A stretch of DNA of 64,000 nucleotides from Escherichia coli (lineage in GTDB: Bacteria > Pseudomonadota > Gammaproteobacteria > Enterobacterales > Enterobacteriaceae). Positions 43,347 through 45,100 of this stretch are shown piece after piece (position 1 is the first letter of the stretch; each line of letters opens with the position of its first letter). Location: the NCBI RefSeq assembly GCF_001677475.2, contig NZ_CP015229.1, one strand, 5' to 3'. The notes below the pieces were generated by a model. The model ran no database searches. It was not told the origin of the DNA and saw only the letters and a program-made list of their open reading frames with translations. Made by a program: the position numbers and the translations under genes.

Positions 43347-43534
43347 CTTATATCCTCCTAAATCTGGAATAATGATTTCTTAAAAAAGAGCGTTAACCGC
43401 TCACTATTATTTATATGGGGATTGTTTTTAATTTTTCAACCCCTCACATTTATCTCTTATATAATGTATTTATACACGAGATATGTTAAAATGTTATTTA
43501 GATGTTATCAGACGTGTTAAATGTGTTAAACCAC

Positions 43535-43627
43535 AGCACGAATTGCTAAAGCGGAGAACACGAATTAACCAAATTGATGTTTATTCAATCAATTTAGAAA
43601 ATTGCATAGCACGAATTGCTAAAGCGG
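43535..43627. repeat. two 20-bp direct repeats (AGCACGAATTGCTAAAGCGG) 73 bp apart
   Basis: Exact copies at 43535-43554 and 43608-43627; shorter repeats (GTGTTAAA x2, ATGTTAT x2) nearby. Confidence 0.6.
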
Positions 43628-43826
43628 TGAGCATTAATTGAGCTATGAATTGTAAAGATTTGTTACAAGATTTTCTCTCAGATCCAAATCTTCACAGACA
43701 TATAACAATTTAACAAGAGGATAACAATGTATAAAGCAGAACATCACAAAGGATGGATTTGGGAGTATAATCTACTTCTTCCGGCATGTCAACACCATGA
43801 CAAAATCCCCAAGATTCCACCTGAAA

Positions 43827-43990
43827 CCTACACTACAATCTATATGGGGACACTATTTTATTTTTCAAGCCCTACACTACAAACCTACACTTTAAAGGGA
43901 TTGGCCTACACTACACTAGCCAGTAAACCTACACTAGAACACGCTCAAACCTACACTATGAAACCTACACACCTACACTAACCCTACACT
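43827..43990. repeat. iteron-like array: ~10 same-orientation copies of CCTACACT(A)
   Basis: Copies start at 43827, 43871, 43884, 43905, 43928, 43950, 43964 (variant), 43972, 43983, plus a half-copy at 43914; irregular 8-44 bp spacing. Confidence 0.7.
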
Positions 43991-44629
43991 TCAATCTCGT
44001 AAGTGTATGATCTTGAAAGACATTTCACCCCACAGACCATAGAATATAAAACTCGAACTAACGTTCTCCTTTTTGCTCGCTTTCTCTCACTACGTTCAAG
44101 AAAGAGATCTCGCAAAAAGAATACGGCGTAGCCGTGCGCGTAGCGCCCATCAACACCTTCTAAGACCTGCAAGCAGGATTCGAAAGGGATTGGATAGTTC
44201 GCTTCGCTCACGTTCACGCCTACGGCGTTCACTCACTTCTGAAAGGATTTTCTCGAAAGGGATTTTAATACTAGTTACTAACTGATTCTAGAAAGATAGT
44301 AATAATCACTTTGAAGATAATAGTTACTAGATCACTTTAATGATCATGAAAGGTATTGGTATCCCTTCGGGATTGCAACCTTCGGTTGCTAAATTACTTC
44401 CTGATTACTTTTACATCAAAAGAGTATTTCTATATGTATTAAGATCCTTCTCTCTTTTGATGTACTTTTAATCAAATCATGAAGGAGGGCTTTAGCCCGA
44501 CTGAATACAATCCCTTTCAAGTACAGACCAGTTTTGGACTCTACCAGACCACTCTTTCCATAATAACAAGAATTTTCTCTTTATAAATAATATTAGATTG
44601 ATTCACTTTCTTTTAGAGGATTACCGATT

Positions 44630-45100
44630 ATGTACAAGAATACTGTTAAGACTACTACTCCTTTCATCCTGTTAGGTTTTGATGCTGACAGCTTCCACAA
44701 TGACAAGTTAATGAAGATCTTTGTTGAACGTGGTTACAACATTCTTTTCAACTCTGACGAATCTCATTTCTCTAGTGCATGGTATGCGTTTTGCCGTAAT
44801 AAGAAGCCGACCATCGTTGTTAACTGCTTCACCGATGAAGACCGCTTAAAGTACCAGAATCTACCAGCAATTATTGTTCGTGATGATCTGCCGTTTGAAG
44901 TCCGGCCAGGTGACATTGATCTGGGTAGCTTCTTAACTCTTCGTGAACTGGATGAAGCAATGTTTAACTACGGTAAAGAAACCGCTCAGGAAGCCCCAGA
45001 ACAAGATGAAGAAGATGAGGAAGACGAAGACTACGCTCCAATCTGTTTCTCTTCTCAGAATGGCTTCTACGGTTACGATGAAGGCTTAGATATGCTGTAA
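44630..45100 (+). CDS. hypothetical protein with acidic C-terminus
   Basis: 156 aa; AGAGGA SD; first rightward gene after the non-coding hub. Confidence 0.55.
   Translation: MYKNTVKTTTPFILLGFDADSFHNDKLMKIFVERGYNILFNSDESHFSSAWYAFCRNKKPTIVVNCFTDEDRLKYQNLPAIIVRDDLPFEVRPGDIDLGSFLTLRELDEAMFNYGKETAQEAPEQDEEDEEDEDYAPICFSSQNGFYGYDEGLDML

Follow-up and report, generated by a model that had tools for sequence, protein, structure and literature searches.

The pairing of a repeat array with a co-evolving cognate protein is an arrangement already known from phages and plasmids. In iteron origins (lambda O with ori-lambda; RepA of P1, RepE of F and RepA of pSC101) helically phased repeats of the same orientation are clustered and their binder is encoded alongside, the repeats and the N-domain of the binder being type-specific and co-varying and the other parts shared. 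In type Ib/II partition centromeres (R1 parC with ParR, TP228 parH with ParG, the omega sites of pSM19035) repeats of 7-11 bp recur at about one helical turn, with the array directly upstream of the promoter of the binder operon. Immunity modules (C of P2, c of Mu, C1 of P1) combine non-palindromic repeats and a type-specific protein with cassette swapping and early divergent promoters. The features named for these three systems are shared by a locus in a 64,000-nucleotide stretch of Escherichia coli DNA (contig NZ_CP015229.1 of assembly GCF_001677475.2; hereafter the window), which is chromosomal and carries a prophage from ~39.84 kb to ~62.9 kb. An intergenic gap of 1283 bp (43347-44629; hereafter the hub) separates the leftward genes p60 (43164-43346), p328 (42060-43046) and p80 (41802-42044), on the minus strand, from the rightward genes p156 (44630-45100) and Rha (45463-46305), on the plus strand. 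An earlier reading of the same DNA (the original prediction) had described the hub as the divergent control region of a mobile element, as it proved to be, and had left open whether it served as an origin, operator, packaging or partition site; an array bound by protein at the DNA level is supported here, and packaging and partition are disfavoured. To judge from co-variation, helical phasing and charge, the repeats are very probably DNA binding sites of p328, and p328 together with these predicted sites is, on sequence evidence, a co-adapted specificity cassette in the early-control hub. The reading we favour, with a probability of about 0.45, is that the array and the adjacent hairpin field form an iteron-like replication origin, for which p328 would be both initiator and autoregulator.

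The array (43827..43990, plus strand) holds nine exact same-strand copies of CCTACAC(T/A) within 163 bp, eight of them reading CCTACACT and one CCTACACA, and an overlapping copy with one mismatch, ACTACACT, starts at 43910; the ten or so same-orientation repeats that had been predicted correspond to these nine exact copies plus ACTACACT (43827-43989). The extended consensus is AAACCTACACTA and the start-to-start spacings are 44, 13, 21, 23, 22, 14, 8 and 11 bp. CCTACAC was found 15 times in the whole 64-kb window compared to an expected 3.68 +/- 1.84, a number reached in 0 of 100 shuffles. An inverted near-copy, CATACACT (44002..44009, minus strand), closes the array and forms CTACACTT-N9-AAGTGTAT with the last direct copy; an inverted copy also closes other array types among the relatives, as GGGGCAAAA in the TTGCCCC type and as GGGGA/CGGGG in locus L008. 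Three minus-strand copies of AAACCTACACT within p328 and p80 (41817, 41835 and 42828) were considered as distal sites and rejected, as they are absent from homologues of 71-79% identity and probably reflect a coincidence of K-P-T-L codons.

Relatives of the locus were collected via p156 (23 IMG/VR loci), from E. coli genomes and via p328 homologues, and are cited here by L numbers. A motif search in related elements had been proposed as a test of conservation; the array was retained at the same position wherever a relative could be examined (30 related loci), with 5-15 copies of a motif that had been exchanged between types (CCTACACT; CCCTGCACTAA; TTTTTGCCCCTGAAA; TCCCCG; TCCCCGGTATTAG plus GATGTACAAGG). 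In 30 of 30 loci the motif agreed in type with the 313-371-aa protein whose gene is second in the leftward operon. Type A proteins (71-100% identical to p328) occur with six to nine copies of CCTACAC, P0123 (45% identical to p328) with five copies of CCCTGCACTAA, which is a one-base change of the motif, p313 with six to nine copies of TTTTTGCCCCTGAAA, p337 with about 13 copies of TCCCCG, and p371 with seven copies of TCCCCGGTATTAG plus ten of GATGTACAAGG; the matched protein/site pairs form the series CCTACACT, CCTGCACT, TTTGCCCCTGAA, TCCCCG and GATGTACAAGG. The relation is graded: homologues with 79% and 71% identity to p328 keep both CCTACACT and its spacing pattern, at 45% identity a one-base variant is found, and at ~25% the motifs are unrelated. 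Because sites differ by one base at 45% identity and are new at ~25%, the specificity of the p328 family appears to be readily re-targeted in nature, and at least five specificity types exist among phages with flanks that are 73-95% identical.

Linkage alone would be a trivial source of such an association. When the window was compared with phages of the TTGCCCC type, which have the same flanks, homology was interrupted in two blocks only, namely 41800-43045 (p80 and p328) and 43728-44232, the latter comprising the leftward promoter PL, the array and GC-rich hairpins; homology to L009, L018, L023 and L024 is lost at 43727/8 and regained from 44233. The two swapped blocks are separated by 680 bp of p60 and its leader that are 87-94% identical. 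Alleles a, b and c of p60 were found with both array types, and the alleles of TerS, p156, Rha, p85, p200 and TerL also assort independently of the motif. As the two blocks are not adjacent and p60 and the other alleles are independent of the motif, the association is more than mere linkage. The same comparison bears on the possibility that the hub is a terminase recognition site (cosB or pac). Terminase sites are often short-repeat arrays, such as the R sites of lambda cosB and the hexamers of P1 pac, and the hub does lie between the TerS-like gene (40528-41079) and the TerL gene (47497); however, TerS is 78-100% identical across array types, each of the two TerL alleles (about 55% and 90-100%) is found alongside either motif, it is with p328 that the array co-varies, and distances of 2.7 kb and 2.9 kb separate the hub from TerS and TerL, respectively. 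Directly upstream of TerS, moreover, a GC-rich region containing an exact GAAAGGGATT copy is itself a candidate, and a packaging role for the hub is considered highly improbable. This copy (40417-40426, minus strand) lies beside a GTCGC-TAC-GCGAC hairpin in the GC-rich gap at 40228-40527, where cos could plausibly lie. Ends of IMG/VR contigs that fall within the hub were rejected as cos ends, since their differing positions point to assembly breaks.

A few loci depart from the simple pattern. L007, which has a strongly divergent p60 (34% identity), carries two different motifs in tandem (hub 2950-3420) and only a single gene of the p328 family. L009 (3091-3135), L011 and L018 have three CCTACAC copies beside a TTGCCCC array though they are without p328; these are probably remnants of recombination. 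TTTTTGCCCCTGAA, the repeat unit of TTGCCCC-type arrays, has the same sequence as the 5' arm of the Rha terminator common to the family, TTTTTGCCCCTGAATTTCAGGGGCTTTTTT (L004:5645, L009:5669, L023:5825 and most other loci; ~46310 in the window), a match that may be a clue to the origin of that array or a coincidence. An exact TTTGCCCCTGAA downstream of Rha in TTGCCCC-type loci was rejected as a cognate distal site, as it is the 5' arm of this terminator and is also found in CCTACAC-type loci.

The repeats behave as a signal in duplex DNA. In comparison with L030 and L031 (71-79% relatives), the columns of the 8-bp motif are 75-86% identical and the spacer columns 26-31%, with the spacing pattern of 22-23, 22, 14-15, 8 and 11 bp retained; conservation of motif columns between diverged spacers indicates selection on the motif itself and rules out the open reading frame (ORF) at 43727-43981. 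The spacings of the window array have a period of 11.25 bp (R=0.85, p about 0.02), and four arrays of unrelated sequence each gave a best period of 10.25-11.25 bp (p 0.006-0.03 against random placement), with a sub-series at 21-23 bp also visible; classical iterons use about 22 bp spacing. Since the period equals one turn of B-DNA, the proteins are likely to be bound along one face of the duplex. These results also bear on an explanation at the level of RNA (a sponge for a protein or sRNA, or a leader) or of a coding element, which the original prediction had named as the refuting alternative in the form of a translated ORF lacking a function at the DNA level. The ORF (43727..43981, plus strand, 84 codons) has a good Shine-Dalgarno sequence, a rightward promoter match of 10/12 (43743-43771) could transcribe the window array, and the region downstream is highly structured. 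Against this, neither the promoter nor the ORF is conserved in relatives: the ORF is covered to 35-60% in most of them, is not conserved codon-wise, and is disrupted by indels that are not multiples of three, such as a 23-nt deletion in L014, and it was rejected as a gene. Phasing of 10.25-11.25 bp in four unrelated arrays would be meaningless for RNA, the GNA loops of the hairpins described below are split between strands, no Rfam 15 match at gathering score was obtained for 43300-44700 (best E-value 0.35), and no tRNA or tmRNA was detected in the hub. A function as RNA or peptide is accordingly given very little credence.

Short repeats with a period of ~11 bp directly upstream of a binder operon also recall the centromeres R1 parC/ParR and TP228 parH/ParG, and a centromere-like or silencing site of the parC/parH type, with p328 as adaptor, could serve to segregate the prophage or a transient episome, or to silence it as a nucleoprotein complex. 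Helical phasing, the coiled-coil proteins p328 and p80, and the likely autoregulation of the binder operon would all fit. The element, however, has no NTPase partner of the ParA, ParM or TubZ type, its only NTPase family being TerL; the binder is large (313-371 aa) and is not a small ribbon-helix-helix protein; and the phage integrates by means of a large serine recombinase, with 59 of 59 matches chromosomal and none on plasmids. We regard a centromere as improbable.

The predicted binder, p328 (42060..43046, minus strand), is the second product of the leftward operon p60-p328-p80 and was absent from the small proteins that the original prediction had put forward for pull-down. It consists of a basic, beta-rich N-domain (pI 9.8, about residues 1-170), a coiled coil and a strongly acidic tail (pI 4.1) that ends in ...AYAYAA. 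Within the family the N-domains are basic (pI 9.3-9.8 in four of five) and the remainder acidic (pI 4.1-4.8). The model of the N-domain is mainly beta and of modest confidence (pLDDT 64), and matched no known fold; a HMMER search of 1.84 billion representative proteins with this domain returned only three true relatives. p328 and p313 have unrelated N-domains and a common C-terminal motif, LHDxxYxTN(Y/F)S. The small coiled-coil protein p80 (41802..42044, minus strand), which ends in ...PTLRVVA, is swapped together with p328 and is missing from several TTGCCCC-type loci, which suggests that p80 is an accessory and p328 the constant partner of the array. Proteins of the swapped block end in tails that resemble the ssrA tag (...PTLRVVA, ...GLRLVA, ...PTLRLVA, ...AYAYAA, ...LLDFAA and ...YVRRAA, read at 41802-42044 and 42060-43046 of the window, at L004:967-1338 and at L008:302-1303 and 1331-2344), a hint of possible ClpXP-type turnover.

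The leftward operon is preceded by PL, a near-consensus sigma-70 promoter (43764..43792, minus strand; -35 TTGACA at 43792-43787, a 17-bp spacer and -10 TATACT at 43769-43764; 11/12), and the array begins 35 bp upstream of the PL -35 hexamer. All array types examined have an equivalent of PL, with scores of 10-12 of 12. A transcript from PL would have a leader of ~400 nt, which contains two exact copies of the 20-mer AGCACGAATTGCTAAAGCGG (43535-43554 and 43608-43627, plus strand; 0.01 expected), as had been predicted, around an AT-rich imperfect palindrome, followed by a terminator-like hairpin with a T-run (43388..43402, minus strand) ~25 nt ahead of the p60 ribosome-binding site. Hairpin and T-run are kept at that place in relatives with differing stem sequences, and would attenuate transcription between PL and p60. 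In most relatives a single AGCACGAATTGCTAAAG between PL and p60 is flanked by two to three LexA-box-like sites (CTGT-N8-ACAG/CCAG, e.g. TGCTGTATGAATTAACAGTG); such boxes were seen in L002, L004, L005, L008, L010, L012-L017, L021, L030 and L031, at the equivalent of ~43450-43660 of the window, where the second 20-mer copy is found instead. They suggest that the leftward operon is SOS-induced in those relatives, which suits a lytic function and not a maintenance repressor. Shortly downstream of PL the motif recurs as an inverted pair, CCCTACACT-N22-AGTGTAGGG, in L031 and as two direct copies in L030, an arrangement that fits autoregulation. A 43-nt direct repeat, CACTAnnATcTATATGGGGAnnnTnTTTTnATTTTTCAAnCCCT (79% identity), was also noted at 43402-43444 in the p60 leader and at 43831-43873 between array units 1 and 2; relatives have a single copy of this element, just downstream of PL. 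On the other side of the hub, a candidate rightward promoter for the operon starting at 44630 (44563..44591, plus strand; ATAACA-17-AATAAT) scores only 9/12 and is conserved across relatives; a weak leftward promoter match overlaps it.

The main rival reading takes the locus as an operator or immunity cassette, in which p328 would be the type-specific regulator (a repressor, or a protein that switches the early operons), the array would control PL and perhaps a rightward promoter at 44017-44045, and the motifs would represent heteroimmunity types. Lambdoid imm regions show cassette swapping and P2-type repressors bind direct repeats, and the exchange of cassettes between phages that are otherwise ~90% identical is the classical pattern of an immunity region. 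The array adjoins a near-consensus promoter, L030 and L031 have sites right at PL (in the window the sites are upstream of the PL -35, and none was seen at the p156 promoter), and a repressor is in a sense missing, as nothing resembling CI was detectable in the element. The 9-15 sites, however, far exceed those of known operators (two to nine in the immunity modules of P2, Mu and P1), and most lie 35-430 bp upstream of the promoter core and not over it. In most relatives the p328 gene stands behind LexA-like boxes and a terminator, which points to an induced and not a maintained function. Neither a helix-turn-helix (HTH) nor a peptidase-S24 signature was found in p328, with its N-domain predicted to be mainly beta, and the swapped block includes about 230 bp of hairpins for which an operator would have no need. 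An operator role is therefore judged possible and somewhat unlikely.

The hairpins extend rightward from the array and fall into two zones, with 44000-44232 being type-specific and 44233-44629 common to the whole family. The GC-rich type-specific hairpins (44069..44228) comprise a long imperfect hairpin (44069-44119) and the mini-hairpins ACGGC-GTA-GCCGT (44123-44135), GCGC-GTA-GCGC (44136-44146) and ACGCC-TAC-GGCGT (44216-44228). The family-wide cluster (44361..44498) consists of HP1, ATCCC-TTC-GGGAT (44361-44373); HP2, GCAACC-TTC-GGTTGC (44375-44389); HP3, with arms at 44402-44424 and 44452-44474; and HP4, GGGC-TTTA-GCCC (44487-44498), which has the conserved flanks GAAGGAG and GACTGAA. Two adjacent UUCG-loop hairpins had been predicted at 44361-44392; adjacent hairpins do exist at 44361-44389, with 3-nt UUC/TTC loops on stems of 5-6 bp in place of UUCG tetraloops. 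Each of the four family-wide hairpins stays in place among relatives while its stem takes three to four unrelated sequences (GCAACC, GACGCTC, TGCAGC and GGATGC in HP2), and the loop of HP2 flips from TTC to GAA between relatives. Folding was better than that of shuffled sequences on both strands (z = -4.0 for plus, -5.8 for minus), and 38 perfect GC triloop hairpins were counted in eight representative regions (44069-44500 of the window and its equivalents in L004, L007-L009, L013, L029 and L031) compared to 2.15 in shuffles. A GNA loop is present on one or other strand in 17 of 20 distinct hairpins, seven on the plus strand and ten on the minus strand, and the minus strand of HP1 and HP2 carries CCGAAGG. 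Both the mixture of strand orientations and the flipped loop favour hairpins or cruciforms in DNA over a single RNA.

Loops of the type d(C-GNA-G) are unusually stable in DNA (PMC3201870), and such mini-hairpins, according to a 2026 review (PMC13037366), occur often where phage replication is initiated, in ssiA of RSF1010 (CCGAAGG) and in N4 hairpin promoters. In RSF1010 oriV the RepC initiator is combined with ssiA and ssiB on complementary strands (PMC8567376). The locus resembles this IncQ oriV in that an iteron-like array is followed by GC-rich hairpins on both strands, and HP1 and HP2 carry the CCGAAGG heptamer of ssiA (PMC13037366; PMC8567376). It differs in that the phage has no homologue of the RepA helicase or RepB' primase and no sequence homology to oriV, and has at least ten small hairpins where oriV has two signals of 40 nt.

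Several other repeats occupy the hub, and the further repeat families of the original prediction proved non-random. TAGTTACTA is present twice (44272 and 44321; 0.11 expected). Of the four exact occurrences of GAAAGGGATT in the window, the hub contains three (44182, 44255 and, on the minus strand, 44509), and the fourth (40417) lies upstream of TerS. An AT-rich stretch (44272..44346, plus strand, 72-78% A+T) contains the family-wide repeats TAGTTACTA and ATCACTTTGAAGATAA (44305, with a degenerate copy at 44331); ATCACTTTGAAGATAA has one to four copies in relatives. The HTH-like protein p60 and the proteins p85 and p200 are candidate binders of the family-wide repeats ATCACTTTGAAGATAA, GAAAGGGATT and AGCACGAATTGCTAAAG.

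The favoured origin reading can be put as a sequence of conditional steps. Several p328 molecules would load through the basic N-domain onto one DNA face, with the coiled coil mediating their oligomerisation. p328 would act between the divergent promoters PL and PR, where outward transcription is expected to leave the region negatively supercoiled, and we infer that such supercoiling between outward-firing promoters would favour opening and hairpin extrusion. p328 would promote opening of the adjacent type-specific and family-wide segment, the GNA-loop mini-hairpins on both strands would be priming or entry signals for host enzymes, and the acidic, aromatic-ended tail of p328 may recruit a host or phage partner. 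Through the sites at or next to PL, p328 would autoregulate its own operon. An origin is favoured because the phage needs one and has no other candidate initiator; because direct repeats, sites at the promoter of the binder and hairpins on two strands parallel iteron replicons and the IncQ oriV; and because the LexA-like boxes in relatives suit a lytic function. With iteron origins the locus further shares an inverted motif repeat at the binder's own promoter (in L031) and a binder of ~300 aa, like lambda O. A structured non-coding segment of several hundred bp between divergent early promoters, in a phage with little or no replication machinery of its own, is also a likeness to origins of the lactococcal phage c2 and ColE1 type; those origins use a primer transcript and no type-specific binder, whereas in the prophage the loops are split between strands and the cognate protein co-varies.

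A number of observations weigh against an origin. Compared to classical iterons of 17-22 bp, the array has short repeat cores (6-12 bp) at irregular spacings (8-44 bp), and it lies outside the gene. Scans for DnaA boxes, integration host factor (IHF) sites and GATC yielded nothing conserved: the 8/9 matches to the DnaA box were scattered and differed in position, and the IHF consensus was absent. The flanks of the array are 53-62% A+T, no conserved A+T-rich unwinding element (and nothing like the adjoining A+T-rich 13-mers of iteron origins) stands beside it, and the nearest stretch above 70% A+T towards p156 is ~270 bp away in the window. p328 matched no Rep or initiator family by sequence or fold (Rep_3, RepA_N, Phage_rep_O, RepC and others), having neither Rep/O similarity nor a winged-helix prediction. 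The distance from array to PL ranges from 35 to about 430 bp among relatives, no LexA-box-like site was found by the same criteria in the whole 64-kb window, and the module was never found on a plasmid (72,556 plasmids). It is conceivable, and put forward tentatively, that the p328 family is a new class of sequence-specific duplex-DNA binder with an unrecognised fold and the sole phage-encoded initiator of a widespread E. coli prophage family that would depend on host enzymes for the rest, with the GNA hairpins as priming or entry signals.

The prophage is of a temperate siphophage type, ~35 kb when complete, as in a relative integrated in hicB that has structural, lysis and recombinase genes. 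The original prediction had seen no Rep, ParB or CI homologue nearby, and searches of PHROGs, NCBIfam, Pfam and PDB sequences agree, with no replication or CI-type gene detectable in the element. The early proteins other than Rha received no Pfam, NCBIfam or PHROG assignment, and PDB sequence searches with p60, p156 and p200 gave no match. In p156 (44630..45100, plus strand) an acidic linker joins an alpha/beta N-domain to the tail ...GFYGYDEGLDML, both of which are conserved; p156 does not track the array type. p60 (43164..43346, minus strand) is the small HTH-like product of the first leftward gene, and its alleles are independent of array type. Two further HTH-like genes, p85 (46546-46803) and p200 (46806-47408), lie past Rha on the minus strand; p60, p85 and two repeats within p200 share the HTH-like motif GRPxxFxRE ... 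GIxxxTFxKLLKKY and appear paralogous. The later genes are, in order, a lambda gpA-type TerL (47497), portal, a protease-capsid fusion, tail fibre, IS3 and a large serine recombinase, the last being found at the far end of each prophage copy. The window copy is a defective deletion derivative that has lost ~13 kb of tail and lysis genes at IS3 relative to the complete relative; IS3 (58329-59482) and an endonuclease fragment, within 58251-60010, replace the tail-tube, tape-measure, tail-tip and lysis genes of L026.

Integration has occurred inside host genes at no fewer than three sites, namely codB (the window, truncated at ~39840), ycdX (L001) and hicB (L002 and L026). Host REP elements (Rfam naRNA4) just outside the prophage (39147-39223, 39241-39317 and 19741-19810) mark the flanks as enterobacterial chromosome, and a protein identical to the 42060-43046 product is encoded on E. 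coli contigs beside the prp operon and a truncated codB. Relatives were found in 57 of 5,426 complete E. coli genomes (~1%), in 59 places that were all chromosomal, and the p313 variant is recorded on >1000 contigs. The hub DNA (megablast) and p328 and p156 (tblastn) had no match among 50,697 phage records, in which the best matches to the major capsid protein and TerL were only 43-45% identical (phage DCP80). No relative of p328 or p313 is encoded by the 72,556 plasmids (tblastn), an alignment scan of species-representative genomes with p156 gave no match, and a literature search on the prophage (hicB, serine recombinase) returned nothing relevant. The family is one without a cultured member.

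As far as these comparisons go, the p328 family, its fold, the short phased sites, the series of re-targeted specificities and the GNA-hairpin field appear to be new, none having been found described for a characterised phage. If the array were instead the operator of a new repressor, this would still be a new family of regulators, of routine interest. The natural protein/site pairs offer a system for defining a new DNA-recognition domain and its specificity code. The GNA-hairpin field would be among the clearest natural cases of DNA mini-hairpins in the control region of a double-stranded phage and, if the origin reading is true, initiation at these hairpins would be the double-stranded-DNA-phage counterpart of the single-strand initiation signals of G4 and RSF1010. 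The protein/site pairs could also help to explain how replication is started, or immunity established, in a phage that has hardly any early genes.

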